Positions 10,804-54,139 of a stretch of DNA of 64,000 nucleotides are shown here, in pieces; the first letter of the stretch is position 1; every line of letters begins with the position of its first letter. Location: positions 14,057 through 78,056 of the forward strand of contig JAZDGD010000004.1 of NCBI GenBank assembly GCA_043807255.1. Direction: 5' to 3'. The notes under the pieces were generated by a model that saw only the letters and a list, made by a program, of their open reading frames with translations, did not search any database and was not told the DNA's origin. The stretch is from Patescibacteria group bacterium. Its GTDB lineage: Bacteria; Patescibacteriota; Minisyncoccia; RBG-13-40-8-A. Both the position numbers and the translations under genes were made by a program.

Positions 10804-10840
10804 AGAAATACCCGAGGTCTGACCTCGGGTATTTCTTCGA
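10804..10840. repeat. 37-bp perfect palindrome gaagaaatacccgaggtctgacctcgggtatttcttc (CCGAGGTCNGACCTCGG family)
   Basis: the same core atacccgaggtcagacctcgggtat recurs at 49397-49421; the core alone is at 32135-32155, 32876-32896 and 36159-36177. Confidence 0.8.
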
Positions 10841-10908: not shown

Positions 10909-11469
10909 CTAATTTAGAACGATAAGTTCTTCTTGTGGGTTGACTCTGATAACCCCATCAAAGCCATCGGAATCAATTTGTGACGCGTATTTATGGAAAA
11001 CTTCATAATCGTGAGCAGGGTCATTTTCCGAAAAAAATGTAAGTCCTTTTTCTCGTCGCGTTTTCATTTCTTTTATTTTTGCGATTTCGGGCTTTTTCCA
11101 AAACCATAAATTTACGGTCTCGAGTGGCGTTATAAAGTAAAGAGCTATAATGTGAGTGGCACCATACTGCCTCAGCTTGCTAATGAAAAGTTTTCGTTCT
11201 TTACTTTCGACTGTCCAGGAGTCAAGAATCAACTTAAGTCCTGTTTGCGTTGATAGTTTGCGTCTCAACAGGCGATACATGATTTCTTGGGCAAAGTACA
11301 GCATTCCAGTATGGGGGTCTGTATCAATCGCACCAAATAAACGTAAAAGGATTTCATCGCGACTTACCGCAGACAGTCCGGGTTGATTTTCGATAATACG
11401 TTTGGCATAATAACTTTTACCAGATCCCCGTTGGCCAATTAGTAAATAAACGGTGTTATCTTTTTTCAC
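10909..11469 (-). CDS. P-loop kinase (AAA_33 / zeta-toxin / polynucleotide-kinase-like)
   Basis: Walker A GQRGSGKS near the N-terminus, Walker B-like ILDSW; 186 aa. Confidence 0.5.
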   Translation of the reverse strand: MKKDNTVYLLIGQRGSGKSYYAKRIIENQPGLSAVSRDEILLRLFGAIDTDPHTGMLYFAQEIMYRLLRRKLSTQTGLKLILDSWTVESKERKLFISKLRQYGATHIIALYFITPLETVNLWFWKKPEIAKIKEMKTRREKGLTFFSENDPAHDYEVFHKYASQIDSDGFDGVIRVNPQEELIVLN

Positions 11470-11601
11470 AAAAACCTCCTCTTTTGCAATGTAATGAACT
11501 AGTTCGCATGATAGCTGTTATTTAAAGATTAGTCAAACATTTAAAAAACTCGGTTGCGATTAATCGCGCCGGTTTTTATTTTAATTTTTAAAACTTGACA
11601 A

Positions 11602-25103: not shown

Positions 25104-27080
25104 TTAGCGGGGTAAAAATCGCTTTATTAATTTTTCGGCCCGAACTAGGTTCTTAACCCAGTTTATTTTTTTGCCTGGATATTTATTAAACCAAGTCATT
25201 TGGCGTTTGGCAAAGTTGATAATTTGTTGCTCTAGTTGTTCGATCATTTGTTCTTTGGTTAAGATTCCCTGCAAGTAACGTGCCACATAGCGATACTCTA
25301 GACCAAAATCATCTAAACGTTTCCAGGTTACGCCTTGTTTGTGTAATTTTTTTATTTCTTCAATCATTCCCGCATTAATGCGTTTAATTAGGCGTGTGTG
25401 AATTAATTTTTTTAATTCGGAAATTGATTTCTTAATTCCAACATATAGAACATTGAAATTAGATTCTGTTGAATTTAATTCTGGCACAGGTTTTCCGGTT
25501 TTGATAACAATTTCTAACGCCCTGATTAATCTTCGGCGATTTTTGGCATCAATATTACTTGCTCGATTTGGATCGAGTTTTTTTAGTTGTTCAAATAATT
25601 TTTCGGTTGTTTTCTTTTCCAGTTCTTTTCTTAGTTTCCAATCCGGCGCTACTTCGGGAATATTTATATTTTCAGTTATTGCTTGAATATAAAATCCTGT
25701 TCCCCCGCAAATAATTGGAGTTTTTTCTTTTTTTAAAATTTTATTTATTGCTTCAAGTGCCAATTTTTTGTATTCGGCAACACTAAATTGTTTTTTTGGA
25801 TTTGCAATATCTAATAAATAATGCGGAACTCCTTGCATTTCTTTTTTCGTGATTTTGCCCGTGCCGATATTCATTCCTTTGTAGATTTGTCGAGAGTCGG
25901 CAGAAACTATCTCGGCTTGCCCTGCTTGCCCCGCTCCTGCGGTGGAGCATGGTCGAAGGGCAATTTGTACGGCTAAATCGGACTTGCCAGAGGCAGTAGG
26001 ACCAAGAACCACAATCAATTTAGACTTCTGGTTTACTAATTTTTCTAAAATCTCCCATCGACGCTTTTTCTCGGCAAGTGGAACATTGTCCTCGAATTTT
26101 GCCGCAACCGTGCCTTGGCGAGTTGAATATTTATTGATATATGCCAAATCGAAATTTACTTCTTTAAATAATTTAATCGTATTTTCAAATTGTTTTTTTG
26201 TTTCTCCCGGGAAACCAACAATAATATCGGTTGTAAATTTCGCTTCGGGGATTTTATTTTTTATTTTTTTAATTAAATTGATATAGTGTTCGCGTGTATA
26301 TTTACGATTCATTTTTTCAAGAATTTTATTATCACCACTTTGTACTGGCAAGTGAATTTCTTTACTGATTTTGGAAGAATTTGCAATTACATCAATTAAT
26401 TCATCAGAAAAATCTTTAGGATGCGAGGTTAAGAATTTGATTGTAAAATTCCCAGGAATATTGTTTATCGTTTTAAGGAGTACAGGAAAAGTAGCCGGAG
26501 AACAGTTCTCCGTAATTACGGAGAACTGTTCTCCGTAGTAACTATTTACGTTCTGTCCGAGCAATACGATTTCTTTATAGCCATCTTTAATTAGTTTCCT
26601 AATTTCTTTTATTATATTTTTTGCTGGTCTCGAGGTCTCTCTTCCGCGAGTATGGGGAACAACACAATAGGTACAAAAATTATTGCACCCAGTCATTATT
26701 GGTACATAAGCGGATTTATGATTGGCCTGTCCGCCGGTGAGGTGGGAATGTTTTGGTTGTAATTCTAAATAGTTTTTCCCCAATAATTCATCTATCGATA
26801 ATACTTCATCAAAGAATTTTAAGAACTTAAGTTTATCGGCCTTAATCACGCATCCAGTTAATATTTTTTTGGCTTTTAGTTTTTTAAATTTTCTGTTTAG
26901 TCCAAAAACCCTATCAATTGCTGATTGTCTTACAGAGCAGGCGACAATCACTATCAAATCAGCCCCTTCTATTGTGGGGGCTGATTTAAATCCAGATTGC
27001 TCTAGATAACTACTTATTCTTTCGGAATCAGATATATTCATCTGACATCCGAAAACTTTTAGATAATACCTTTTCCCCAT
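25104..27080 (-). CDS. miaB-miaA: MiaB-MiaA fusion: tRNA-i6A37 methylthiotransferase (MTTase-N plus radical SAM, no TRAM domain) fused to tRNA dimethylallyltransferase
   Basis: N-terminal half has the MTTase Cys triad and radical-SAM CNNFCTYC; C-terminal half has GPTASGKS P-loop ...SADSRQIYKGMNIGT typical of MiaA; a continuous 658-aa ORF. Confidence 0.75.
   Translation of the reverse strand: MGKRYYLKVFGCQMNISDSERISSYLEQSGFKSAPTIEGADLIVIVACSVRQSAIDRVFGLNRKFKKLKAKKILTGCVIKADKLKFLKFFDEVLSIDELLGKNYLELQPKHSHLTGGQANHKSAYVPIMTGCNNFCTYCVVPHTRGRETSRPAKNIIKEIRKLIKDGYKEIVLLGQNVNSYYGEQFSVITENCSPATFPVLLKTINNIPGNFTIKFLTSHPKDFSDELIDVIANSSKISKEIHLPVQSGDNKILEKMNRKYTREHYINLIKKIKNKIPEAKFTTDIIVGFPGETKKQFENTIKLFKEVNFDLAYINKYSTRQGTVAAKFEDNVPLAEKKRRWEILEKLVNQKSKLIVVLGPTASGKSDLAVQIALRPCSTAGAGQAGQAEIVSADSRQIYKGMNIGTGKITKKEMQGVPHYLLDIANPKKQFSVAEYKKLALEAINKILKKEKTPIICGGTGFYIQAITENINIPEVAPDWKLRKELEKKTTEKLFEQLKKLDPNRASNIDAKNRRRLIRALEIVIKTGKPVPELNSTESNFNVLYVGIKKSISELKKLIHTRLIKRINAGMIEEIKKLHKQGVTWKRLDDFGLEYRYVARYLQGILTKEQMIEQLEQQIINFAKRQMTWFNKYPGKKINWVKNLVRAEKLIKRFLPR
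26506..26545. repeat. 40-bp perfect palindrome cggagaacagttctccgtaattacggagaactgttctccg inside the miaB portion
   Basis: encodes YYGEQFSVITENCSP; 21-23-bp cores (g)tacggagaacagttctccgta(c) are intergenic at 32171-32193, 32912-32934 and 33379-33399. Confidence 0.8.
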
Positions 27081-28890: not shown

Positions 28891-31800
28891 TTATCTTTGA
28901 CTTATTAATTCTTCTGCGTCGTCGCAGAGGATTTTTAATTGATCGTCTTTGTCGGTGAGGCGACCAGTAAGCATGATAATTTTTCCTTCTTGCCAAATTG
29001 TCGGATTTTTTTCTAAGATTGTAGCAAAAACCAATATTTCTACTGTTGCAGTTAAGTCCTCAATTTCCACGAATAACATTGGTTTTCCAGACTTTGTAAT
29101 AAATTTAGTAATTTTTATAATTACTCCCGCAACTTTCACTTTACTATCTTTTTTCTCTTTTATCAAGTCCTTGATCTGAACTGTGCGATGTTTTAAGAAT
29201 TCCTTGTGGTCATTTAGAGGATGATCTGAAATATACATTCCTAAAAGCTCTTTTTCCCACTGAATTTCTTCTTGAAGTAATTTCCTTTTTTCTCCATTAC
29301 TGGTTGCAAAAAGTAATTGATTTTTTTGCGAAATCGGTGCCTCGCCGAATAAACTGGTTTGTCCAAGATTTTTAGTTTTTTTTGATTCCTTAGAAAATTC
29401 TAATAAGTCCTCAATTTTATCAAGCAAATCTTTGCGTGGAGCTAAGGCATCGAATGCACCAGCACGGATTAAACTTTCTAAAGATTTTTTGTTTACAATT
29501 GTTGATTGACCTGCCTTCGGAGATAATCTGGTAAGAAAATCAGCCATTGTCTTGTATGTTCCATTTAATTTTCTTTCTGCAACGATTTCTGCAACTACGT
29601 TGTGTCCAACATTTTTAACCGCTGCCATGCCAAAGCGTATGGCGGATGGAGGAACGAGCGTAAAATTATCAAAGCTTTCATTAACGTCTGGTGGCAAAAC
29701 CTGAATTTTCATTTTTTTGGCCTCATCAACCAAAATATTAATTCGGTCTAAATCTTTTTGGTCCGCCTGCATCAATGCGGTTACAAATTCTGCTGGATAG
29801 TTCGCTTTTAAATATGCGGTTTGATAGGCGATTAAAGCATAACAAGTTGCATGTGAACGATTAAATCCGTATTGAGCAAATGGCTCAATCGAATCCCATA
29901 TTTTTTGCGCGATTGCTTTGTCAATTCCATTTTTAATCATTCCTTCAATCATTCTGTCCGCTTGTTGTTCAAGCAATTTTCTAATTTTCTTTCCCACCGC
30001 CTTTCTTAAAACATCTGCTTCGGACATTGAAAATCCAGCCAAGTCTTTGGCAATCTGCATTAATTGTTCTTGATAAATTGTAATGCCGTAAGTATTTTTT
30101 AAAATTGGTTCAAGCATTGGATGATCGTATCTGATTACTTTTTCACCGTTTTTTCTCGCAACATATTCTGGGATAAGATCCATTGGACCTGGACGATATA
30201 GTGCAACCATGGCAATAATATCTTCTAATTCACTGGGTTTTAATTTCTGTAGATATTTTCTCATTCCCGATGATTCAAGCTGAAAGACCCCGATGGTGTC
30301 TGCTTTTCTCAAAAGGTCAAATGTTTTTTTGTCGTCTAAGGGAATATTTTCAATGTTGATTTTAATTCCTCGTAATTTTTCAATAAGATTTAGGGCCGTT
30401 TCAATTGTGGTTAGGTTTTTAAGTCCCAGAAAATCCATTTTTAAAAGCCCCAATGCTTCGATGGCATGCATTTCATATTGCGAGACAATTGAGTTTTCAT
30501 TTTGTGGCGCAAATTGACGAGGAGTATAAAAGTCCAATGAATTTTTTGTGATCACAATTCCGCAAGCATGAGTTGATGCGTGTCTGGCAACACCTTCAAG
30601 CTTTTTCGCAATATCAAGTAATTTTTTGGCTTGATCGTCTGAATCGTATGCCTGTGAAAGTTCGGGCACTTTTTCTATTGCGTCTTTTAAAGAAAACCCA
30701 AAGGGAATCATTTTTGAAAGTTGGTCACAAAAAGCATAGGGATAACCTAGCGCCCTGCCAGCGTCACGAATTGCAGCACGCGCAGCCATTGTTCCAAAGG
30801 TTATAATTTGAGCAACGTGGTCGGCTCCGTATTTTTTCGTTACATAGGCAACAACCTCATCACGTCGGACATCAGCAAAGTCCAAATCAATATCAGGCAT
30901 ACTAATTCTTTCGGGATTTAAAAATCTTTCAAAAAGTAATTTGTATTTTAATGGGTCAACATTAGTAATGTTTAACAGATAAGAAACAATTGAACCAGCT
31001 GCTGAACCACGACCCGGACCAACAACAATGCCATTATTTTTTGCCCAATTAACAACATCTTGAACAATTAAAAAATAGGAAGCAAAACCAGTTTTTTTAA
31101 TTACACCTAATTCGTAGTTCAATTGTTTTTTTGCCTGTTCAGAATTTTCCCCAAAGTCTCTTTTGGTCATTCCTTGTTCGCATAATTCTTTTAAATATCC
31201 ATCAGCGGTTTGGTCGTCGGGAAGAGGGAAGTGGGGAAGTTCGGTTTTGTCGAGTTCCAATTTCACGTCGCACATATCTGCAATTTTTTGAGTATTGGTA
31301 ATTGCTTCAGGAACATTTCTGAATGCTCGAATCATTTCATCGGGCGATTTTAAAGAATAATCTTCATTCATCATATTCATTCTATCTTTTTCATCAACAG
31401 TTCTCACTGTTTGTACGCAAAGTAAAACATCATGAACTTCTGCATCTTCTTTGTTTAAATAATGAGTATCGTTTGTAGCAACTAATGGTAAGTTTGTTTC
31501 TTTGGCTAATTGAATTAATTTCTCGTTTATTCTTACTTGTTCTAAGTCGTTGGGATGATCCATAATTTCCAAATAAAAATGATCTTTACCAAAAAGTTTA
31601 GAATATTCCAGGGCGATTTTTTTTGCTTTTGCTAAATCATCGGAAGCTAACGCAGAAGGAACCTCGCCTTGTGGACAGGCACTTAAAGCAATCAATCCTT
31701 CGTGATATTCTCTTAAAACCTCCCAATCAATACGCGGTTTATAATAAAATCCTTCAAGGTATGATTTGGTTACCAATTTAATTAAATTATGATAGCCGGT

Positions 31801-32091
31801 TTTATTTCTTGCCAATAAAATTAAATGGTGTCGGACATCGCCTTTGCCCATGGTTTTATCGTGTCTGCTTCCGGGAGTAATATAAGTTTCAACACCAATA
31901 ATTGGTTTAATCCCAGCTGCAGTTGCTTTTTTATAAAACTCAACAATACCATACATTGCGCCATGGTCAGTAATAGCCAAGGAATCCATTCCGGTTGCCT
32001 TGGCCTTTTCTACTAATTCATCAATTTTTGCCAGTCCATCCAGCAAAGAATAATGACTGTGTACGTGTAGGTGAGTAAATTTTTGCTCCAT
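28891..32091 (-). CDS. dnaE: DNA polymerase III alpha subunit
   Basis: N-terminal PHP domain HVHSHYSLLDG, polymerase core, OB fold; 1066 aa. Confidence 0.9.
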   Translation of the reverse strand: MEQKFTHLHVHSHYSLLDGLAKIDELVEKAKATGMDSLAITDHGAMYGIVEFYKKATAAGIKPIIGVETYITPGSRHDKTMGKGDVRHHLILLARNKTGYHNLIKLVTKSYLEGFYYKPRIDWEVLREYHEGLIALSACPQGEVPSALASDDLAKAKKIALEYSKLFGKDHFYLEIMDHPNDLEQVRINEKLIQLAKETNLPLVATNDTHYLNKEDAEVHDVLLCVQTVRTVDEKDRMNMMNEDYSLKSPDEMIRAFRNVPEAITNTQKIADMCDVKLELDKTELPHFPLPDDQTADGYLKELCEQGMTKRDFGENSEQAKKQLNYELGVIKKTGFASYFLIVQDVVNWAKNNGIVVGPGRGSAAGSIVSYLLNITNVDPLKYKLLFERFLNPERISMPDIDLDFADVRRDEVVAYVTKKYGADHVAQIITFGTMAARAAIRDAGRALGYPYAFCDQLSKMIPFGFSLKDAIEKVPELSQAYDSDDQAKKLLDIAKKLEGVARHASTHACGIVITKNSLDFYTPRQFAPQNENSIVSQYEMHAIEALGLLKMDFLGLKNLTTIETALNLIEKLRGIKINIENIPLDDKKTFDLLRKADTIGVFQLESSGMRKYLQKLKPSELEDIIAMVALYRPGPMDLIPEYVARKNGEKVIRYDHPMLEPILKNTYGITIYQEQLMQIAKDLAGFSMSEADVLRKAVGKKIRKLLEQQADRMIEGMIKNGIDKAIAQKIWDSIEPFAQYGFNRSHATCYALIAYQTAYLKANYPAEFVTALMQADQKDLDRINILVDEAKKMKIQVLPPDVNESFDNFTLVPPSAIRFGMAAVKNVGHNVVAEIVAERKLNGTYKTMADFLTRLSPKAGQSTIVNKKSLESLIRAGAFDALAPRKDLLDKIEDLLEFSKESKKTKNLGQTSLFGEAPISQKNQLLFATSNGEKRKLLQEEIQWEKELLGMYISDHPLNDHKEFLKHRTVQIKDLIKEKKDSKVKVAGVIIKITKFITKSGKPMLFVEIEDLTATVEILVFATILEKNPTIWQEGKIIMLTGRLTDKDDQLKILCDDAEELISQR

Positions 32092-32125
32092 GTAATGATT
32101 TTAGCATTTTTAAAAAAGAAATGAA

Positions 32126-32235
32126 AACACGAAAATTACCGAGGTCAGACCTCGGACATAATATAATATGTACGGAGAACAGTTCTCCGTACATCTATAT
32201 TGTCTCCATTTTCGTACGGCCGTGAAAAAAGGGAG
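32126..32235 (+). repeat. intergenic module R1 (CCGAGGTCAGACCTCGG hairpin, TACGGAGAACAGTTCTCCGTA hairpin and a GTACGGCCGTG hairpin); a 110-bp identical copy is at 32867-32976
   Basis: direct repeat read by eye. Confidence 0.85.
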
Positions 32236-32258
32236 ACACGGGAAAACAAAAAAAGTAC

Positions 32259-32287
32259 TTGATTAATAATTTTTATAAGTGTATATT
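32259..32287 (+). promoter_or_regulatory. promoter TTGATT-17-TATATT for the small-gene pair
   Basis: spacing and hexamers read by eye. Confidence 0.45.
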
Positions 32288-32331
32288 GTAATTGAATTCG
32301 AGAATCGAATTTTAAAAAAGAGGAGGAAACG

Positions 32332-32604
32332 ATGGAAAACAAAAAAGTTAACGCATGGAAAGTTCCTTTTAAGGCCGTTGGTGTCGCATTGAGAGTAACG
32401 TGGATTTTGCCAGCCTTCTCGCTGTGTTTAATGTTTTACATGATATGTCTGTATCCACAAGAATTTCGTGACGGCGTCAAACACAAAGATGGTTTAATGT
32501 GGTTCTTATCTTACATTATAATCTGTATTGCCTGGATTATTTTTGCAGTGATTCATAAATACAGAAATCGGCGAAACAAGAAGAAATTTCAAAAAATTAA
32601 TTAA
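32332..32604 (+). CDS. small membrane protein (90 aa, 2 TM helices, basic tail), strong SD
   Basis: aaaagaggaggaaacgATG; hydrophobic helices. Confidence 0.5.
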   Translation: MENKKVNAWKVPFKAVGVALRVTWILPAFSLCLMFYMICLYPQEFRDGVKHKDGLMWFLSYIIICIAWIIFAVIHKYRNRRNKKKFQKIN

Positions 32605-32615
32605 GGAGGTACGAA

Positions 32616-32804
32616 ATGATAGTGATTGTGTACTTTATGGAAGGATCGTTACTTAAAAGGATTGAAGGCACTTTTAAGGACAACTTAGAAGCGGCGGATT
32701 ATTTGGTAAAATGTGGGTGGCATCGGTCTCAAGTTAATCGATGGGAGTCCGGGGGCGATAACCATCATGCACGCATTATTCATGTGGATCCGCCTCGTCA
32801 GTAA
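32616..32804 (+). CDS. small hypothetical protein (62 aa), strong SD
   Basis: ttaaggaggtacgaaATG; followed by a terminator at 32806-32866. Confidence 0.45.
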   Translation: MIVIVYFMEGSLLKRIEGTFKDNLEAADYLVKCGWHRSQVNRWESGGDNHHARIIHVDPPRQ

Positions 32805-32866
32805 AAAGGAGGGCGTTTGCACGTGGGTCGGTAACCATCCCGGCCCTTTTTTATTTTTTTTACACA

Positions 32867-33030
32867 AACACGAAAATTACCGAGGTCAGACCTCGGACAT
32901 AATATAATATGTACGGAGAACAGTTCTCCGTACATCTATATTGTCTCCATTTTCGTACGGCCGTGAAAAAAGGGAAACACAAAAAACAACCCAAAAAAAC
33001 TTGACAGGATTTGTGGACGTGCTATAATGG
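32867..33030 (+). repeat. intergenic module R2 (copy of R1 plus the promoter block)
   Basis: 32867-32976 matches 32126-32235; 32940-33030 matches 33400-33490. Confidence 0.85.
33001..33029 (+). promoter_or_regulatory. consensus promoter TTGACA-17-TGCTATAAT
   Basis: ttgacaggatttgtggacgtgctataat. Confidence 0.6.
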
Positions 33031-33034
33031 TAGC

Positions 33035-33320
33035 ATACGAGAAGGTGGGGGGTGCCAAGCAAAAATTGCCCTTTGGCTGCAACACCCCCTTGTTCTTTCC
33101 TTAAGACAACGAACAAATTTTATAGATATGCTATACTGTGGGGAGAGTTATTAATACTGGAGACGGCGAACCGTCAAAAGGCGAGATACTCTCTCCACCC
33201 CAATCTGATCCTTATGTCTTTATGAAATAGGGGACACATAAACGGACGCCAAAAGTGGCTTCTAGTATTCCGTCCCCGCCCCGGCGAGAACTACATTATA
33301 CCCTCGCCGGTATTTTTTTG
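33035..33320 (+). ncRNA. candidate sRNA/leader transcript of unknown family, ending in a terminator
   Basis: driven by the consensus promoter; no RBS-bearing ORF; internal hairpins (GGGGGGTG/CACCCCC; GGGGAGAG/CUCUCCCC); terminator ccggcgag...ctcgccgg plus T-run at 33283-33320. Confidence 0.3.
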
Positions 33321-33376
33321 TTTTAAATTTACCCCATAGCAATTTTGTTAAAAATTTGATATGGAGTTTGCATTAG

Positions 33377-33490
33377 ACATACGGAGAACTGTTCTCCGTA
33401 TGTCTCTCTTTTTGTACGGCCGTGAAAAAAGGGAAACACAAAAAACAACCCAAAAAAACTCAGACAGGATTTGTGGACGTGCTATAATGA
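33377..33490 (+). repeat. intergenic module R3 (partial copy, including the promoter block)
   Basis: shares tacggagaactgttctccgta, gtacggccgtgaaaaaagggaaacacaaaaaacaacccaaaaaaac and ggatttgtggacgtgctataatg. Confidence 0.8.
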
Positions 33491-33494
33491 TAAA

Positions 33495-33722
33495 CATTAA
33501 GAGAATCGATCTTTAATTTTGACTCAATTGAAACGATGGGAAGACTTATGCCTCCTTTGGGCCAGACAAACGAATGAGACCTGACGGTCCGTTTGTACCC
33601 ATTGTTTCTAGTTGATAGAGTTTGTGCGAAGCAGGCCCAATCCGGCGCAAAGGAATGCGCTTCTGTTCGCTAGACTCGACGGGACATTCGAAAGGATGTC
33701 CCGTTTATTTTTTTAAAATTTG
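33495..33722 (+). ncRNA. candidate sRNA or r-protein leader of unknown family, ending in a terminator just upstream of rpmF
   Basis: promoter (C)AGACA-17-TGCTATAAT at 33461-33489; no credible ORF; hairpins; terminator gggacattcgaaaggatgtccc plus T-run at 33689-33722. Confidence 0.3.
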
Positions 33723-33757
33723 CATTAATTTATTTTTTCTGATATCATAAAACCAAT

Positions 33758-34063
33758 ATGCCAATACCAAAACAAAGACACACTAAATCGAGAAGAAACA
33801 GACGAAGATCTCATCTTAAATTGAAGAAGAGAACTCTTTCGAATTGCCCGAAATGTGGAGAAACGATTCTGCCGCACCATGTTTGTGCTTTTTGTGGTTT
33901 CTATAATGGAAAAGAAGAAATTGATGTTCTTGCCAAATTAGAGAAAAAAGACAAAAAGAAAAAAGAAAAAGAATTAAAAGAACATGAACACGACGCTAAA
34001 GAAGACAAAGCCCTGCCTACCGGCAGGCAGGCATTAGATTTAGAGAAAATGTCTAAAAAGTAA
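33758..34063 (+). CDS. rpmF: 50S ribosomal protein L32 with a Lys/Glu-rich C-terminal extension
   Basis: MPIPKQRHTKSRRNRRRSH...CPKCGE...HHVCAFCG. Confidence 0.85.
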   Translation: MPIPKQRHTKSRRNRRRSHLKLKKRTLSNCPKCGETILPHHVCAFCGFYNGKEEIDVLAKLEKKDKKKKEKELKEHEHDAKEDKALPTGRQALDLEKMSKK

Positions 34064-40214: not shown

Positions 40215-40480
40215 GGATAGTACATAATCATTAATTAAATTTTTATGTAAAAGAGCGATAACAATAAGCGTACTTTAAAACAGAGTTTAGTTTTGGAACG
40301 TAGTTCAAAAATTGAGCTCTGTTTTTTAATCAGAAAAACATGTACACAATATTCTAATATGTTTTTATGTAATTTACAGTAGTTTGTGTGAGTTTGTTAG
40401 ATCAAATCGAATCTTTTATGGTTATCCTGATACAATCAGAAGTAGGCAGGCCGTTTCGGCCAATCTACTTCTGAATCTTT

Positions 40481-41940
40481 ATTGAGAGTTTGATCCTAGC
40501 TCAGGACGAACGCTGGCGGCGTGGATTAGGCATGCAAGTCGAATGGGTTTAGACCCATGGCGAACGAGTTAGTAAGACGTAGGTACATCCCTCTGACTCG
40601 GACATAACTTGCCGAAAGGCAAGATAATTTCCGATGGTCTCGAAAGAGTAAAGTCTTATCGCAAGATAAGATGGTGAGAGAGTGGCCTGCGCCCTATCAG
40701 CTAGTTGGTGAGGTAATGGCTCACCAAGGCTATGACGGGTAGGGGGCGTGAGAGCGTGTTCCCCAACGATGGCACTGAGATACGGGCCCTACTCCTACGG
40801 GAGGCTGCAGTCGAGAATCTTCCACAATGGACGAAAGTCTGATGGAGCGACGCCGCGTGAATGAAGAAGTCCTTCGGGATGTAAAGTTCTTTTCTAGAGG
40901 AGCAATTTTTGAGTGTACTCTAGGAATAAGGGGTTGCTAAACTCGTGCCAGCAGCAGCGGTAATACGAGTACCCCAAGCGTTGTCCGGAATTACTGGGCG
41001 TAAAGCGTCTGTAGGGTGTTTGATACGTCTTCTGTTAAATTTCGATGCTCAACATCGGAGCTGCAGGGGAAACGGTCAGACTAGAGAGTGTGAGAGGCTG
41101 ATGGAACTTAAGGAGTAGGGGTGAAATCCGTTGATACCTTAGGGAATACCAAAGGCGAAGGCATTTGGCTGGTGCATTTCTGACCCTGAGAGACGAAAGC
41201 GTGGGGAGCAAAAAGGATTAGATACCCTTGTAGTCCACGCCCTAAACTATGAATACTAGTTGTCTGAAGTATCGACCCTTCAGGTGACGAAGCTAACGCG
41301 TTAAGTATTCCGCCTGGGAAGTACGGTCGCAAGACTAAAACTCAAAGGAATAGACGGGAGCTTGCACAAGCGGTGGAGCGTCTGGTTTAATTCGACGGTA
41401 AGCGAAGAACCTTACCAGGGTTTGAAATTCTAGTGAAAACCTGATGAAAGTCGGGTCTTCTACAAGGACACTAGAACAGGTGCTGCATGGTTGTCGTCAG
41501 CTTGTGGCGTGAGTTGCTCCGTTAATTCGGGTAACAAGCGCAACCCCTGTCGTCTGTTATAAGTGTCAGACGAGACTGCCTCGTGATACGAGGAGGAAGG
41601 TAGGGATGACGCCAAATCAGCATGGCCCTTTGATACCCTGGGCAACACAGGCGCTACAATGGCCGAGACAATGGGTCGCCAAATCGTAAGATGGAGCCAA
41701 TCCCATCAAACTCGGTCCCAGTTCGGATTGGGGTCTGCAATTCGACCCCATGAAGTTGGAATCGCTAGTAATCGCAGATCAGCTACGCTGCGGTGAATAC
41801 GTTCTCAAGCTTTGTACTCACCGCCTGTCACACCAGAGAAGCCGGGAGTACCTGACGTGCCACGATTCGTGGTCCTAAGGTAAATTCGGTGACTAGGGTG
41901 AAGTCATAACAAGGCATCCGTAGGGGAACCTGTGGATGGA
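40481..41940 (+). rRNA. rrs: 16S rRNA (about 1460 nt); the gene ends ...GGGGAACCTGTGGATGGA and the canonical 3' tail GATCACCTCCTTA is not present
   Basis: AGAGTTTGATCCTAGCTCAG at the 5' end; universal blocks (GTGCCAGCAGCAGCGGTAATAC, GCATGGTTGTCGTCAGC, GTCATAACAAGG...); leader and trailer complementarity (TTATCCTG / CAGGATAA) brackets the mature gene. Confidence 0.9.
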
Positions 41941-42186
41941 CAATATTTTTACTTAGTTGATAAAATTTCTAGGTAAAGTCGATTATCTTGCATTGCAGGA
42001 TAAAGCAAAAAAGTTTTTTAATTGTTTGTACTAAACAAACAGTAAGTATCGGGAGAACCATAAAAGATTTGATAATAAAAAAACGAGATTTAATCTCGTT
42101 TTTTTATTATATGCTTGCGTTTATTATTATTTTAGCTGTATAATATAAATAGTATTTTGATAATAATTAATAGTGAATAAAATATT

Positions 42187-42450: not shown

Positions 42451-42524
42451 GGGCGTATAGCTCAGTTGGCTAGAGCGCGTCACTGATAATGACGAGGTCC
42501 ATGGTTCGAGTCCATGTACGCCCA
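42451..42524 (+). tRNA. tRNA-Ile (anticodon GAU); CCA not encoded
   Basis: gggcgta...ctGATaa...ggttcgagtcc...tacgccca cloverleaf. Confidence 0.85.
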
Positions 42525-42532
42525 TTTTTATC

Positions 42533-42603
42533 GGGCCTGTAGCTTAGTGGTAGAGCTCCCGATTTGCATTCGGGGGACGGGAGTTCGATTCTCCCCAGGT
42601 CCA
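42533..42603 (+). tRNA. tRNA-Ala (anticodon UGC) with the G3:U70 identity pair; CCA not encoded
   Basis: gggcctg...ttTGCat...gagttcgattctc...caggtcca. Confidence 0.85.
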
Positions 42604-45585: not shown

Positions 45586-45685
45586 CGTGGAATACGAAAC
45601 GGACGGGGGCCAACCCTCGTCCGTATTTTTTTATTCTAAAATTGACTTGTTTCTCTTTTTGTACGGCCGCGTAAAAAGAGAAATA

Positions 45686-47023
45686 CTATTTCTTTACGTA
45701 TTTTACGAATTGATCACTGCGGTCGTATTCATTTTTGAAAACACCAAACGATGCTGCGCCGGGAGACAATAAAATAATGTCTCCTTTTTTTGTAAATTTT
45801 CTCGCTTCTTTAATCGCTAATTGCATTGAGTCAACGACAATATATTCGGGAAAATCTTTAGGCAAAACGCTTAAAATCTTATCAGTCGCTGTGCCTTTTA
45901 TGAATACAACATTTTTAGTTGTGTTTGTTGTGACTTCTAACATGTCGTTGAAGTTTAATTCTTTATTTGCCCCTCCACAAATTAAAACAATATTTTTCTT
46001 GTTTTTATATAAAGAATTTAGTGCGGCAATACAGGCGTCAGGAGTTGTGGCATTAGAATCGTTATAATAAGTAATTCCGTTCTTCTTTAAAATCATTTGT
46101 AATCGTCCAGGTTCGCCAGGATAGGTAGCAATTGCTTGTTTGATTTGTTTTTGATTTAATTTCATTAATTTTAAAACTTCAACAGCTAAGGCAATGTTTG
46201 TCTTGTTGTGTTCGCCAATTAATTTTGTTTTGAAATTTCTAATTGTATCTTCATTAACAACAATAATCTTGGGATTTATCCCGCCTTGGCGGGACCTCTT
46301 TTTTATTTGCACCATCGCTTGTTCACTGATAATTAAAAAATCATTTTCTGTTTGGTATTTAAAAATTTCCGCCTTGTCATCAAAATATCTTTGCATATCA
46401 TTTTTATAATAATTCATATGATCATTCATAAAGGTTGTGAAAACAGCAATGTGTGGACTGATTTTTGATTCACCAAAACCTTGTAATTGCCAAGAGTCGA
46501 GCTCCAAGACAACGACATCGTTATCCTTAACTTTTTCCAGCAAAGGAAGCGTGGCAAGTCCACGAATATTTCCACCCAAAAATACATTTCCTTTTTTATA
46601 ATATTTTTTTAAACCATGATAAATCATTTTTGTGACCGTTGATTTTCCGCGCGTGCCAGTGATGCCAATAATTTTAGCTTTAGTAAATTTGGTAAACAGA
46701 GAAGCATCCATTTCAATGGGAATGCTGTTTTTTCTTGCTTCTGCCAGATAAATAGAATCAAAGGGAACTCCTGCGGCTTTAATCAATGTGTCGGCCTGTT
46801 GAAAATCTTCAATGCGATGCTGGCCTAAAATATATTTTATGTTTTTAAATTTTTTGAGTTGTTTTAGAGAAGAAGCAAGTTGTTGTTCGGTTTTTAAATC
46901 AGTAATTAAAAGATTGGCATCGTGTTTGGCCAAAAATTTCGCAACATTAATTCCTCGGCCAAGTAGCCCAAGTCCCATGATGATGATTTTTTTGTTTTTG
47001 AAATATTCTTTGTAATTAAGCAT
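45686..47023 (-). CDS. murD: UDP-N-acetylmuramoylalanine--D-glutamate ligase; the start is probably ATG 47023 (MLNYKEYF...), because the MENLLQG prefix in the ORF track lies in the shared leader repeat
   Basis: IIIMGLGLLGRG, GITGTRGKSTVT P-loop, Mur ligase domains. Confidence 0.85.
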   Translation of the reverse strand: MLNYKEYFKNKKIIIMGLGLLGRGINVAKFLAKHDANLLITDLKTEQQLASSLKQLKKFKNIKYILGQHRIEDFQQADTLIKAAGVPFDSIYLAEARKNSIPIEMDASLFTKFTKAKIIGITGTRGKSTVTKMIYHGLKKYYKKGNVFLGGNIRGLATLPLLEKVKDNDVVVLELDSWQLQGFGESKISPHIAVFTTFMNDHMNYYKNDMQRYFDDKAEIFKYQTENDFLIISEQAMVQIKKRSRQGGINPKIIVVNEDTIRNFKTKLIGEHNKTNIALAVEVLKLMKLNQKQIKQAIATYPGEPGRLQMILKKNGITYYNDSNATTPDACIAALNSLYKNKKNIVLICGGANKELNFNDMLEVTTNTTKNVVFIKGTATDKILSVLPKDFPEYIVVDSMQLAIKEARKFTKKGDIILLSPGAASFGVFKNEYDRSDQFVKYVKK

Positions 47024-47096: not shown

Positions 47097-47220
47097 TTAA
47101 TTCTATCATTATAATATTTTTTAGACAAAATCCCGATGTAGGGTCGGGATAAAAAAAAGAGGGGAGACGCAACAACGATTGTTCGTTGTTTTGTCTCCCC
47201 ACGCTCCGGCCGTTCGTTAT

Positions 47221-47469
47221 CTACTTGGCCAGTTGTTCGATGGCTTTGACGATATTGAGTCCGATACTAAAGATAAGCGTGATGATGGCCAGAAAAGAGC
47301 TAAAAAGTTGCCTGGAAAGATGCCCTTCGTTCCTGTTTTCCGCTGCGCCAATTACCACCAAAATAAAACTGATGACGACAGCCACGAGCATACTAGTAAA
47401 CATTTTATCCTCCAACGTACGAGATAGTGGGTCGATTCGCATCAACACCACGCTAACATATGTAATCAT
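47221..47469 (-). CDS. small membrane protein (82 aa), GC-elevated, apparently leaderless
   Basis: two TM helices; the minus-strand promoter TTGACA-16-TATGAT ends 5 nt before the ATG; terminator ggggagac...gtctcccc plus T-run at 47170-47215; overlapping plus-strand ORFs are judged artefacts. Confidence 0.4.
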   Translation of the reverse strand: MITYVSVVLMRIDPLSRTLEDKMFTSMLVAVVISFILVVIGAAENRNEGHLSRQLFSSFLAIITLIFSIGLNIVKAIEQLAK

Positions 47470-47512
47470 AGCATATACACAAAATTTGTCAAGTTTTTTC
47501 GGGTAAAATAAA

Positions 47513-47550
47513 AATACTGTAAATTGAACGATCGTTCAAAATACAGTATT
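47513..47550. promoter_or_regulatory. 38-bp near-perfect palindrome aatactgtaaattgaacgatcgttcaaaatacagtatt (operator-like); a related copy is at 56545-56580
   Basis: ATACTGTA-N6-ACGATCGT-N6-TACAGTAT architecture at both loci, each next to a strong promoter. Confidence 0.5.
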
Positions 47551-49658: not shown

Positions 49659-49891
49659 CATAAAATAAATTAAAGGGCTTGACCCCTCACATGAAAACAA
49701 TATACTCAACCACTTGACACGCTATTTTTTTTCGCATAAACTAACAACATATAAGAACTATGAGAAAAAACCAAAAACAACTTATGAAAACAAGCGGTTG
49801 ATAAAACCTGGTATTTTCATACCTCGTATTACTCAGACCGCCAAAAGCGGTTTTTTTAAATCATAGAATCGGAAGACCTTAACAACCCCTA

Positions 49892-49987
49892 AATCTCGCA
49901 AGGCGAGATCGGGAGCCCGACCGAAAGGTGTAGGGCTCCCCAAGTATCGCAAAGCGAGATCGGGAGCCCGACCGAAAGGTGTAGGGC
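49892..49987 (+). repeat. tandem direct repeat (2 x about 45 bp) in the 23S leader, each unit with two hairpins
   Basis: atctcgcaaggcgagatcgggagcccgaccgaaaggtgtagggct appears twice. Confidence 0.8.
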
Positions 49988-50636
49988 TGAATATGTTTCG
50001 ACATCAAGTAAAAAAAACAATAAAAGAAAAAGCATTTTTTATCGAGTAAAAAAGGTTAAAAATAAAAGCAATTAAAGTCTAAGTAGTAATGTCTATAAAT
50101 TGCCAGCTAAATTAAGCAGGTTAGTAAGGGTATATGGTGGATGCCTTGACACTAGAAGGCGAAGAAGGACGTGGCGTAACTGCGATAAGTCTCGGGGAGG
50201 TGTGTAGCAACCTATGATCCGGGAATCTCCGAATGAGGAAACTCAATTCCAATAAACTGGAATTATCCCGATTGAAATCGGGAAGCGAACTCGGCGAAGT
50301 AAAACATTTCAGTAGCCGAAGGAATAGAAAACAAAAGTAATTCCCCAAGTAGTGGCGAGCGAAAAGGGAACAGCCCAAACCCGATCCTAGAACCGCTTTG
50401 CGGTTCGGATTTAGGGGGTAGTAAGATAATAACGTCGAGAGAAATCTCGGGAAAGTGGATACAAAACTAAGACTTCCTTAGTTGAAGGAACTGGAAAGTT
50501 CTACCAAAGAAGGTAATAGTCCTGTAAACGAAAAGCCTATTATACTACTATTATTGAATATTGAGTACCGCGATAACATATAATCTAGCGGGAATCATCC
50601 TGAACTATCTAGGAAAGGCTAAATACTTCTAGTGAT

Positions 50637-50675
<39 letters not shown>

Positions 50676-52732
50676 GCCCGATAAGGGCGTTGAAATAGTA
50701 CCTGAAATCATATACTTACAAAGAGTCGGAGTCCGACCCGCAAGGGGTTAGGATGACGGCGTGCTTTTTGCAGAACGAACCAACGAGTTTACCGCAGACT
50801 GTTGTCTAAGTCCGTATAGGACGGAGGCATAGGGAAACCGAGTGTTAATAGCGCGAAATTATAACAGTATGCGTAAGACCCGAAGCCAGGTGAGCTACCC
50901 ATGGCCAGGATGAACTCTGATGAAAATCAGAGGGAGGTCCGGACCCACCAGCCGTGCAATACTGGGGGATGAGTTGTGGGTTGGAGTGAAAAGCTAATCG
51001 AACCTGGTAATAGCTGGTTCTCCTCGAAATATGTTTAGGCATAGCCTCTTGTTTTTTCTCCTTAGGGGTAGAGCACTAAATTGGTTGAGGTGGCGCAAGC
51101 CTACTCACTAAATTAAACTCCGAATACTAAGGCAGATAGCAAGGGAGTAAGACTGTGGGGGCTAAGCTCCATGGTCAAAAGGGAAATAGCCCAGATCGTC
51201 GTCTAAGGTCCCAAAACTAAATTAAGTGGTAAAAGAAGTGTTTCGTCTTTGACAGATGGGATGTTGGCTTAGAAGTAGCCATCATTTAAAGAGTGTGTAA
51301 CAACTCACCATTCTATTCTCGATTTATCGAGAGCTATGACAAGACGCGCTGAAAATGTAACGGGGCTCAAATTTAGTACCGAAGACACGGATTTTCAAAT
51401 TAATTTTTGAAAGTGGTAGAGGAGCATTTTTTCAACAGTGAAGCTAATTCGTGAGAGTTGGTGGAGTTGAAAGAAGAGAGAATGTTGGTATGAGTAACCG
51501 CAAGTCCGATGAGAAATCGGACCATCGAAAGCCCGAGGTTTCCTTGGCAATGTAAATCAGCCAAGGGTTAGGCGGATCTAAGGCAATCCCGAAAGGGGTA
51601 GCTGATGTTCAATCGGTTAATATTCCGATCCTTCTGTATTTTTCTATGGAGTGACGGAGTTTAGTAGTTAGAGCAGATTATTGGATTTCTGTTTATATAT
51701 TAAGAAGCCAGATTAGGCAAATCCGGTCTGGAATACTTCAAGATACGTATAAAGGTTCAACTTCGGTTGGATTTATTCTAATGAGCAAGCTTCCAAGAAA
51801 AACTTCTATGGTTAGAAATATAGAATCCGTACTTAAACTGACACAGGTGGGCGAGGCGAGGAGCCTAAGATGAACGGGTTAACCTTCGTTAAGGAACTCG
51901 GCAAAACAACGGCCGTAAGTTCGCAATAAGGCCTTCCCCGACCCGCAAGGGATTAGGGGACGCAGCTAAAGATTCCTAGCGACTGTTTACTAAAAACACA
52001 GGTCCCTGCTAACTCGTAAGAGGATGTATAGGGGCTGACACTTGACCAGTGCTGGAAGGTTAATAGTGGGGGTGTATGTCTCGCTTTGCGAGATGTATGC
52101 TCACTGCTTGAAGCCCCAGTGAACGTCGGCGATAACTATAATCGTCCTAAGGTACCGAAATTCCTTGGCATGTAAGTTATGTCCTGCAGGAAAAGTGTAA
52201 CGACTGGGAAACTGTCTCAACGAAGAGCCCGGTGAAAATGCAATGTCAGTGAAGATGCTGACTACCCGCGACAAGACGAAAAGACCCCAGGAGCTTTACT
52301 ATATCTTGGTATTGTTTTAATGATTTTAATGCGTAGCGTAGACGGTAGGATTTGAAGGTTGCCTCTCGGGGCGACTGGATCCGACAATGAAACACCGTTC
52401 TTTGAAATTGTTAAAACTAACCCCTTCTATATGAAGAGGAACAGTGCCAGGTGGGTAGTTTTGGTGGGGCGCTAGCCTCCTAAAGAGTAACGGAGGCGTT
52501 TAAAGGTTGACTAGCTCCGGATGGAAATCGGAGCGATAGTGTAAGAGCAAAAGTCAGCTTTACTGCAAGACTGACAGGTCGCGCAGTTACGAAAGTAGAA
52601 TCTAGTGAACCGACCCTGGTTAATAGAATCGGGGGAGATCATCGGATAAAAGCTACCCTGGGGATAACAGGCTGGTAGACGCTAAGAGTCCATATCGACG
52701 CGTCTGTTCGGCACCTCGATGTCGGCTCATCT

Positions 52733-52763
<31 letters not shown>

Positions 52764-52784
52764 TGGCTGTTCGCCAATTAAAGA

Positions 52785-52824
<40 letters not shown>

Positions 52825-52872
52825 ACTCCTATCTGTCGTGGGCGTAGATACTTGAGAGACTTTGTCCCTAGT

Positions 52873-53637: not shown

Positions 53638-53949
53638 ACGAGAGGACCGGGATGAACAAACCTCTGGTGTACCAGCTGTCCTGCCAAGGGCACTGCTGGG
53701 TAGCTAAGTTTGGCAGGGATAAACGCTGAAAGCATATAAGCGTGAAACCCTTCTCGAGATTAGGTATCATAGATTGGTTGAAGATTACGACCTTGATAGG
53801 CTTCAGGTGTAAGTACCGAGAGGTATTGAGCCGAGAAGTACTAATAAATCATTTGCCTGTTTAATTAGGCTGGCAATTTGTGGACGTTATTTAGATTTAT
53901 TTATTTTAGTTGATATCGAAAAATTGTGATTCAAAATTATAACCATTAT

Positions 53950-54056
53950 AAGGGAGCTATACCTGGAGTGCTCCACCTGTTCCCATTCCGAACACAGAAG
54001 TGAAATCTTTCAGGGCCGATGATAGCGGATTACCGCAAAAGTAGGTGACCCTCCTA
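53950..54056 (+). rRNA. rrf: 5S rRNA
   Basis: CCACCTGTTCCCATTCCGAACACAGAAGT...GCCGATGATAGCGG; terminator gctccgcaactgcgggg plus T-run at 54081-54117. Confidence 0.8.
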
Positions 54057-54139
54057 TAATAATCACAATTAGCAAATAAGATGAAAGCTCCGCAACTGCG
54101 GGGTTTTTGTTTTTTTAAAAATTTGTTATACTATAATCA

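Follow-up and report, generated by a model that had tools for sequence, protein, structure and literature searches.

The spacer of 1,666 nt between the divergently transcribed dnaE gene (28891-32091, minus strand) and the rpmF-nusB-rnc genes (from 33758, plus strand) in a 64,000-nt stretch of a Patescibacteria group bacterium genome (contig JAZDGD010000004.1; the whole stretch is called the window below, and positions refer to it) is best read as a stack of exchangeable expression cassettes. These would be insulated from one another by mosaics of palindromes that resemble bacterial interspersed mosaic elements (BIMEs), and they would occupy a variable insertion hotspot in a genome of the candidate phyla radiation (CPR) type. 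We put the probability of this reading at roughly 0.6. The island would comprise three self-contained cassettes, all of them oriented toward rpmF and each possessing a predicted sigma-70-type promoter and a predicted intrinsic terminator (Table 1). The first of these appears intact and would encode p90, a protein with two predicted transmembrane segments, together with the soluble protein p62, both of which belong to rare, fast-diverging orphan families; the second is an open reading frame (ORF)-poor structured unit of uncertain status (unit 2), and the third contains a structured RNA element (unit 3). All best matches of the DnaE protein are to metagenome-assembled genomes of the Parcubacteria group, with at most 63% identity to any GTDB species representative, and these matches place the host with the Parcubacteria/Paceibacteria-type genomes (Patescibacteria, CPR).

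The relatives that could be compared at this site were collected by a scan of metagenomes with the N-terminal 400 residues of DnaE; they show 76-98% amino acid identity over these residues and 74-90% identity in dnaE DNA. We compared the dnaE/rpmF site in 16 related metagenomic contigs, which are designated by L numbers; the core genes at its flanks, dnaE and rpmF-nusB-rnc, are shared by the window and every one of these contigs. Eight of these sites are empty (L081, L082, L083, L084, L087, L089, L090, L091), with 63-150 nt separating the start codons of dnaE and rpmF in relatives whose DnaE identity ranges from 76 to 97%, the latter value being that of L081. The sites of L081 and L082, as read, consist of two promoters only, and the dnaE-promoter sequence of the window (TTTTAACAC/TTTTAGCAT) is found there as well; the rpmF promoter is kept beside rpmF in every close relative, whether the site is filled or empty. 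The remaining eight sites are occupied, always on the rpmF strand, by cargo that differs from locus to locus. L102 carries a p90-like gene, a terminator, a module (a hairpin 1 variant and hairpin 3 without hairpin 2), a promoter and a p62-like gene; L094 carries two p62 paralogues, L088 a 160-aa protein and a p62 homologue, and L161 a p62 gene followed by a 36-nt spacer and a TTGACAGGATTT promoter as in the window and then by a non-coding start with a hairpin. L086 encodes an unrelated 91-aa protein; in L093 the gene for an 82-aa membrane protein precedes a homologue of unit 3, in L092 that for a 60-aa membrane protein precedes a transposase gene between two repetitive extragenic palindromes (REPs), and the same REP-transposase-REP arrangement is present in L085. 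Except for the p62 and p90 families, the cargo proteins are unrelated to one another. Since eight relatives are empty and eight carry other cargo, we regard the region as a variable insertion hotspot within the divergent dnaE/rpmF promoter region, in agreement with an initial annotation that had been made from the sequence alone and had called the spacer an accessory island. Neither the window nor any of the 16 loci has an integrase gene near the site, and the islands contain no integrase ORF.

More distant genomes are organized differently. Among 80 loci of GTDB species representatives with 54-63% DnaE identity, rnhB (RNase HII) is found between dnaE and rpmF (e.g., L030, L054, L055), and none of the 80 loci shows DNA or protein similarity to the island. 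The whole clade near the window (L081-L094) lacks rnhB at this position, and the gene was not found anywhere in the 64-kb window. A degraded known gene had been named as the finding that would refute the initial annotation; no rnhB remnant was detectable when 18 syntenic RNase HII proteins were compared with the window by tblastn (best E = 0.12, nothing notable in the island).

Cassettes with different cargo have predicted junction elements in common, i.e., promoters, a hairpin in the 5' untranslated region (5'UTR), terminators and a spacer. The TTGACAGGATTT promoter is present twice in the window and recurs in L092, L093, and L161, where it precedes either small membrane-protein genes (L092, L093) or a non-coding start (L161). 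The promoter/5'UTR sequence TATATTGTAATTGAATTCG is present in the window and precedes the p62 homologues of L088, L102, and L161. The p62 terminator is kept after the p62 homologues of L102 and L161, and in L161 it is followed by the 36-nt spacer of the window. The predicted promoter and terminator signals of each unit match in quality those found at the rRNA genes and at other genes of the genome. Only nine sites in the 64-kb window match the promoter consensus at 11 or more of 12 positions, one of them upstream of the 16S rRNA gene, which argues against a chance match in the case of the R2 promoter. In the island, no convergent promoter was detected.

Three repeated modules (R1, R2, R3) lie in front of the cassette promoters. 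R1 (32125-32239) and R2 (32866-32980) are 99% identical over 115 nt, and blastn extends this match to about 140 nt at 93.6% identity, so that the R1/R2 repeat of the initial annotation is confirmed. R2 (32942-33001) and R3 (33401-33460) are 95% identical and possess in addition an identical 27-nt promoter core (GACAGGATTTGTGGACGTGCTATAATG); the roughly 90 nt said to be common to these two modules are thus real, but the consensus promoter ascribed to both is found in R2 only (12/12), with R3 carrying CAGACA at its -35 position (10/12). As had been noticed, the palindromes from which the modules are built recur elsewhere in the window, each in a number for which about zero is expected by chance. 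Hairpin 1 (CCGAGGTCAGACCTCGG) is also present at positions 10812, 36160, and 49411, and the CGAGG-N5-CCTCG family to which it belongs sits after terminators at 10812, 36160, 36190, 49320, and 49411; a co-varying copy (GGCAGAGGTCTGACCTCTGCC) occupies the same place in the L102 module. Hairpin 3 keeps an 11-nt core constant while its stems change among four copies in the window and the copy in L102, and one of these, GTACGGCCG at 45648-45686, joins the core to a different stem. The hairpin 2 palindrome TACGGAGAACAGTTCTCCGTA forms a doublet at 26494-26537, and five copies of TACGGAGAACNGTTCTCCGTA with at most three mismatches are present in the 64 kb versus none expected. Exact pattern searches found neither hairpin 3 nor the REP in viral contigs, and hairpin 3 was not found in metagenome contigs.

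The elements are arranged in the order hairpin 1 - REP - hairpin 3 in R1 and R2, REP - hairpin 3 in R3, and hairpin 1 - hairpin 3 in L102, and each of the three palindromes also occurs alone elsewhere in the window. We read the modules as BIME-like mosaics of three independent palindromic elements, placed between one terminator and the next promoter, and not as the duplicated regulatory cassette that had been proposed; one of the three, the REP, is missing from the L102 module. The complete composite is found within the island only, and its sub-elements alone are dispersed, which points to R1, R2, and R3 as local duplications.

Hairpin 2 connects the island to a family of transposases. A variant of it that co-varies at two positions (TACGGAGGACTGTCCTCCGTA) flanks the Y1_Tnp genes of L085 and L092, the products of which are IS200-like Y1 transposases (Pfam PF01797, E = 9.4e-12) whose best NCBIfam model is REP_Tyr_transpos (E = 6.5e-12). 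They fall below the cut-off for REP-associated tyrosine transposases (RAYTs) in NCBIfam NF047646 (45.5 versus 80 bits) and would be divergent relatives of these enzymes. Since the variant both flanks and lies within the Y1 transposase genes of relatives, we take hairpin 2 to be a REP in the sense used for REPtrons, a genuine element of the kind mobilized by RAYTs. The absence of hairpin 2 from the otherwise equivalent L102 module indicates that it was inserted independently into the spacer. The palindrome bears no unpaired GTAG or CGTC tag; it is fully paired, as ATGTAC...GTACAT or ATATAC...GTATAT.

Several further observations concern these palindromes and transposases. The RAYT-like Y1 genes (231 aa) are located at 6756-7451 in L085 and at 74-769 in L092, on the minus strand of these loci; each is flanked by REPs, and its reading frame runs through a third one (KYGGQSSVN / KHGGQSSVS). 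L024 and L072 contain weaker homologues. In the window, the head-to-head REP doublet at 26494-26537 lies in frame in the miaB part of a 658-aa ORF (25104-27080, minus strand), by eye a MiaB-MiaA fusion, where it encodes GQNVNSY-YGEQFSVITENCSP-ATFPVLL. The same miaB codon position in L090 (80% DnaE identity) is also occupied by a doublet, at 11402-11445 (NGGQSSVFTEDCPP), which is of the REP type found in that genome (GGAGGAC); this suggests that in-gene palindromes are retained and co-vary with the REP type of the genome. Such in-gene palindromes recall the palindromic elements of Rickettsia.

We propose that cassettes are gained, lost, and reshuffled at the dnaE/rpmF site through recombination between the shared junctions and between the flanking core genes. 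The 115-nt direct repeat of R1 and R2, which brackets cassette 1, may be the footprint of one such event or the substrate for the next. The hairpins may insulate neighboring units and stabilize transcripts, and the cargo, comprising small membrane proteins, phage-like small soluble proteins, and a structured RNA with an exposed CCUCC, would serve in envelope or conflict roles and not in housekeeping.

Unit 3 provides the clearest case of conserved non-coding cargo. Its folding energy lies well below that of shuffled sequences (z = -6.7), and one homologue, that of L093, was found by nhmmer among 161 loci (E = 1.6e-13). All 46 predicted pairs are kept between the two copies, eight of them through double and 13 through single compensatory changes, although the apparent support is inflated by the derivation of the structure from these same two sequences (n = 2); in a control with slid partners, zero to two double changes and 29-49% pairing were obtained. 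The DNA identity of unit 3 to L093 is 77%, compared to 74% for dnaE DNA of the same genomes, and the short ORFs within unit 3 are not conserved. A covariance model of the element found no further copy in the window and 82 loci (0.9 Mb). Neither unit 2 nor unit 3 has an Rfam match at the gathering threshold, as assessed over the whole window, and matches with E of 10 or less in 32000-33800 are at chance level only (at most 20 bits); ARAGORN found no tmRNA (transfer-messenger RNA). We regard unit 3 as a predicted conserved structured RNA that has no Rfam family. The L093 copy comes after the stop codon of the 82-aa membrane protein gene, and the window copy is preceded almost immediately by a promoter and a 5'UTR-type hairpin; because of these two arrangements, cassette 3 looks like an L093-type cassette (a small membrane protein with a structured 3' RNA) that is devoid of its ORF. 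The suggestion that the island encodes two small RNAs (sRNAs) consequently holds in part: unit 3 is a structured RNA with compensatory changes, but it resembles the 3' part of an ORF-less cassette and not an independently evolved sRNA gene.

Unit 2 is likewise structured (minimum free energy z = -4.4; sub-hairpins z = -4.1 and -3.3). It had been described as free of ORFs, and this is approximately so: its terminator is present, as is that of unit 3, but mechanical ORFs of 30-57 aa can be drawn in it, none of which has a convincing ribosome-binding site or a homologue. A second promoter-like sequence within the unit (TGCTATACT at 33129-33137), which resembles the promoter at 11595, raises the possibility of two transcripts. 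The start region of L161 contains a nested hairpin like that of unit 2 and a GUUCUUU tail; the layout is alike, the alignment is poor, and the contig ends there.

A number of points weigh against the exchangeable-cassette reading. Every promoter, terminator, and transcript is a prediction, and exchange is deduced from comparative anatomy, with no excision or insertion intermediate seen. The relatives are 10-25% apart in dnaE DNA, so that the comparison is one between species and not between strains. There is no RAYT gene within the 64-kb window, and the connection between the REP and a transposase rests on the relatives. Unit 2 has no convincing homologue among the 161 loci (nhmmer), the support for unit 3 is inflated as stated above, and both the mutated -35 region of R3 and the missing ORF of cassette 3 fit decay as well as they fit function. 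These last points lead to a competing explanation, in which the island is mostly junk: decaying cassettes and selfish palindromes, with units 2 and 3 being non-functional leftovers of the 5'UTR, 3'UTR, and terminators of cassettes that had lost their ORFs, and with the apparent structure reflecting merely GC-rich terminator hairpins and REP-like hairpins. The change of TTGACA to CAGACA, the lack of a homologue of unit 2, the absence of any island from half of the relatives, and the fact that hairpin-rich sequence alone yields strongly negative z-scores would all be accounted for in this way. However, a comparison of the window with L093 shows unit 3 to be conserved to the same degree as dnaE at the DNA level, and the differences it has accumulated are concentrated in changes that preserve pairing (21 of the 46 pairs changed, none broken), which would be unexpected for neutral leftovers at such a divergence. 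The R2 promoter is a perfect match to the consensus, and the proteins of cassette 1 are intact and belong to families. We consider the decay explanation unlikely, though it is a serious competitor of the cassette reading.

The two proteins of cassette 1 bear on a further explanation. The initial annotation had recognized a two-gene operon of small proteins with Shine-Dalgarno sequences and a terminator, and this operon is upheld: p90 has two hydrophobic segments and p62 none, and a GGAGG sequence is positioned 5-6 nt before the ATG of both genes. No family of Pfam, NCBIfam, PADLOC, or PHROGs fits either protein, the only PHROG match being at 0.065. Comparison by exact sequence showed neither p90 and p62 nor RpmF and NusB of the window to be on record. 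A word-indexed search of 5.8 billion proteins returned no homologue of p90; its one relative is encoded in L102 (83 aa, 34% identical, pairwise E = 1.5e-16). With p62, the single-sequence word-indexed search likewise gave no match, but a profile built from contig-derived homologues identified five other family members among the 5.8 billion proteins (33-52% identity), and an exhaustive phmmer search of 1.84 billion representatives found only family members and two weak, partial matches. The family alignment contains 7-10 invariant columns, and the AlphaFold model of p62 (pLDDT 84) has the order beta-beta-alpha-beta-beta-beta. This model has no match in the PDB; its similarity to small uncharacterized phage proteins (TM-score 0.74-0.81, E at least 0.004) is below significance. 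Together, the family alignment and the model indicate that p62 is a real folded protein. A blastn comparison of the island with phage and plasmid nucleotide collections gave no match.

Small hydrophobic proteins are typical type I toxins, and the initial annotation had envisaged a membrane toxin and its partner. In its full form, this explanation holds that a duplicated regulatory cassette drives the toxin p90, its partner p62, and two trans-acting sRNAs, and that the RNAs or p62 neutralize p90. It draws on the size and the two predicted transmembrane segments of p90, on the start of p62 only 11 nt later with its own strong ribosome-binding site, on the CCUCC of unit 3, which could pair with GGAGG ribosome-binding sites, and on the position of the unit 3 RNA directly behind a small membrane protein gene in L093. 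Against it, the homologues of p62 occur mostly without p90, alone, doubled, or beside the unrelated 160-aa protein (L161, L094, L088), and the p90-like and p62-like genes of L102 belong to different transcription units. Since p62 is mostly found without p90, and since the promoter/5'UTR of p90 precedes p62 elsewhere, the p90-p62 operon appears to have been derived in this genome and not to represent a conserved pair. RNAduplex energies of units 2 and 3 with the translation-start regions of p90 and p62 fall within the distribution of shuffled controls, neither protein matches a toxin-antitoxin, defense, or phage family, and unit 3 is kept in the window without a membrane-protein gene, which is the reverse of what addiction to an antitoxin predicts. 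We find the toxin explanation doubtful, and somewhat more so than decay.

The cassette reading might be taken further, to an integron-like exchange point that operates without an integrase. Promoter-equipped micro-cassettes would circulate among related Paceibacteria and be captured via conserved junction elements (hairpin 1, hairpin 3 with its GTACGGCCGTG core, and the spacer resembling the rpmF promoter), perhaps with processing in trans by a REP-associated transposase, and unit 3 would represent a new RNA class, a functional regulatory RNA of the anti-Shine-Dalgarno type that outlived its partner gene. We offer this extended form as speculation and would not expect it to hold in full.

Two other explanations carry very little weight. 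Unit 3 might be a cis-regulatory leader (an attenuator or a riboswitch-like element) of the rpmF-nusB-rnc operon, since both copies lie directly upstream of rpmF and the terminator is found about 50 nt before the rpmF start; however, rpmF has its own conserved promoter downstream of that terminator, as the initial annotation had correctly placed it, at least 10 relatives, the closest included, have rpmF and its promoter without such an element, the copy in L093 follows the stop codon of another gene, and no Rfam leader matches, all of which makes a leader highly improbable. Least probable of all is an assembly artifact, in which reads from strains living together would have been wrongly joined within one metagenome bin: the genome is evidently of an uncultured type and related populations with different cargo do co-occur (e.g., L081, L088, and L097 come from one sample series), but the p62 terminator, spacer, and TTGACAGGATTT promoter recur in L161, an independent assembly from another sample, independent assemblies also contain the module between cassettes (L102) and the succession of unit 3 and rpmF promoter (L093), and the 115-nt repeat is shorter than a typical read pair.

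The components of the island are of known kinds (REPs, BIMEs, RAYTs, variable islets, and orphan small proteins), and the island is not a new kind of system. What is new is the combination, namely a stack of micro-cassettes with promoters of their own that alternate with REP-type mosaics at one fixed site, its occurrence in a CPR lineage, and an undescribed structured RNA. REPs, the mosaic clusters that they form as BIMEs, and the REPtrons in which they accompany RAYT genes have been reviewed; REP super-families carry an unpaired GTAG or CGTC tag, and copies within genes are known (PMC3733652). The island resembles these systems in its short, perfect or near-perfect intergenic palindromes, which lie by terminators and are joined with other motifs into mosaics, and in the palindrome variant that flanks an IS200-like Y1 transposase gene in relatives. 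It differs from them in the missing GTAG or CGTC tag, in a transposase that remains under the RAYT cut-off, in its Patescibacteria-type host, and in the coupling of its mosaics to outward promoters between exchangeable cassettes. No report of REPs or RAYTs in the CPR or Patescibacteria was found in the literature searched.

Likenesses to other systems are more partial. The fixed chromosomal site with its variable stack of short, mostly single-gene units, all in the same orientation and split by imperfect palindromes, is reminiscent of an integron array. Integron cassettes are usually promoterless, whereas each cassette here has its own predicted promoter and terminator; moreover, there is no integrase gene nearby in the window or the 16 loci, and the palindromes, which do not resemble attC sites, also occur dispersed over other parts of the genome. 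The Correia elements of Neisseria, the BOX elements of pneumococci, and the enterobacterial ERIC sequences are composite intergenic repeats able to supply promoters, terminators, or RNA-processing sites. Like them, the modules described here are intergenic repeats of about 100-160 nt composed of sub-elements with stable hairpins; unlike them, the full composite exists as three local copies in the island, and it lacks terminal inverted repeats and target-site duplications. Type I toxin-antitoxin systems such as hok/sok combine a small hydrophobic toxin with a highly structured mRNA. Small hydrophobic proteins, strong ribosome-binding sites, a membrane gene with a long structured untranslated RNA in L093, and strain-variable presence are similar features of the locus, but it has no antisense RNA gene, no overlapping convergent promoter, and no complementarity above background; its proteins (60-90 aa, two transmembrane segments) exceed most toxins in size, and the RNA persists without the protein gene. 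Flexible genomic islets are integration hotspots between conserved core genes, and the constant flanks, the empty or filled state of the site, and the different orphan cargo by lineage agree with such an islet. The site differs in being very small (0.4-1.7 kb), in carrying single small ORFs or RNAs, and in having no tRNA gene, integrase, or phage attachment site.

Patescibacteria have tiny genomes that are usually called streamlined and poor in mobile DNA. If our reading is correct, one CPR lineage maintains a constant intergenic slot, flanked by two essential operons, for exchangeable tiny cassettes of orphan proteins and RNA, and the intergenic DNA of this lineage is populated by REP-type palindromes tied to a divergent RAYT transposase. 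Should the cargo act on the envelope, the host cell, or phages, the slot would be a compact source of strain-specific factors for the interactions of an episymbiont. The in-frame REPs in miaB and in the transposase gene would constitute a second, Rickettsia-like case of palindromes tolerated within proteins.

Table 1. Predicted features of the dnaE-rpmF island and its edges (positions in the window).
Feature	Position	Strand	Description
dnaE promoter-like site	32098-32127	-	TTTTCA-18-TAAAAT, TG upstream; left edge of the island
Module R1	32125-32262	+	three palindromes and an A-rich tract running into the -35 element
Hairpin 1a	32139-32155		CCGAGGTCAGACCTCGG; dispersed CGAGG-N5-CCTCG hairpin family
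Hairpin 2a (REP)	32168-32194		ATGTACGGAGAACAGTTCTCCGTACAT
Hairpin 3a	32201-32238		variable stem, invariant loop/core GTACGGCCGTG
Cassette 1 promoter	32259-32287	+	TTGATT-17-TATATT; followed by 5'UTR hairpin AATTCGAGAATCGAATT at 32295-32311
p90	32332-32604	+	90 aa, two hydrophobic segments
p62	32616-32804	+	62 aa, soluble, no hydrophobic segment; lineage-restricted orphan family
Cassette 1 terminator	32825-32860	+	intrinsic; GGGTCGGTAACCATCCCGGCCC stem-loop 32825-32846, then T-run
Module R2	32866-33000	+	hairpin 1b 32880-32896, REP 2b 32909-32935, hairpin 3b 32942-32979, A/C-rich tract
Cassette 2 promoter (R2)	33001-33028	+	TTGACA-16-TATAAT, TG upstream, 12/12
Unit 2	33036-33319	+	GC-enriched, structured; 5' hairpin 33044-33089, long hairpin 33138-33198, terminator
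Unit 2 terminator	33281-33310	+	then T7; read from the sequence, loop too long for the scanner
Spacer	33321-33373	+	like a degenerate rpmF promoter region (TTTTAAATTT..GCA..TTAAAAATT..TGATAT, then TTTGCAT); resemblance judged by eye
Module R3	33374-33460	+	REP 2c 33375-33405, hairpin 3c 33401-33438; hairpin 1 absent
Cassette 3 promoter (R3)	33461-33488	+	-35 CAGACA (mutated), extended -10 TGCTATAAT intact; 10/12
Unit 3	33496-33716	+	17-bp closing helix 33524-33540 with 33598-33615; internal CCUCC 33551-33555; second domain 33618-33677; terminator
Unit 3 terminator	33678-33705	+	then T-run
rpmF promoter	33719-33748	+	TTTGCA-18-TATCAT, TG upstream; right edge of the island

Additional elements were noticed at the sites of the relatives that are absent from the window. 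In the close relatives L081 (4007-4072) and L088 (about 1025-1090), the start codon and the promoter of dnaE are separated by a palindromic, GC-rich insert of about 66 nt (CCCGCCTGCCATGCAAGCCAACTTGTTGGCGTTGCGGGCAGG). Unrelated cassettes in L088 (393-436 and 45-89), L092 (864-909), and L094 (755-799) have a two-hairpin 3' end in common, which consists of GTCGCCGAGGAGGGCGAC followed by a terminator with the invariant loop TAGTTCTACGGAAC and a co-varying stem. Within the window, a further self-contained small-protein cassette is located on the minus strand at 47150-47520; its promoter at 47492 is close to the consensus (TTGACA-16-TATGAT, TG upstream), its 5'UTR is long, the ribosome-binding site reads GGAGGA, and the terminator is strong; its hydrophobic ORF of about 60 aa, judged by eye, lies within an 82-aa ATG-initiated ORF (47221-47469, minus strand). 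Such cassettes thus seem to occur outside the dnaE-rpmF slot as well.

The leaders of rpmF and dnaE are very short and have no Shine-Dalgarno sequence; the island cassettes use strong GGAGG sites. The segment 49451-49658 contains a perfect TTGACA-17-TATAAT promoter and, no more than about 10 nt behind it, a Cys-rich (zinc-ribbon-like) ORF of 56 aa that has no Shine-Dalgarno sequence and whose transcript is probably leaderless. The rRNA genes of the window are dispersed: the 16S rRNA gene (40478-41951) and the genes for tRNA-Ile/Ala (42451-42603) are separated by about 7.5 kb of protein-coding DNA, measured from the tRNA genes, from the 23S rRNA gene (50114-52868), and the 5S rRNA gene (53949-54057) lies a further 1.1 kb downstream of the latter. 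About 130 nt upstream of the 23S start, at 49887-49988, a GC-rich, hairpin-forming unit of 51 nt is present as a tandem duplicate with 92% identity.

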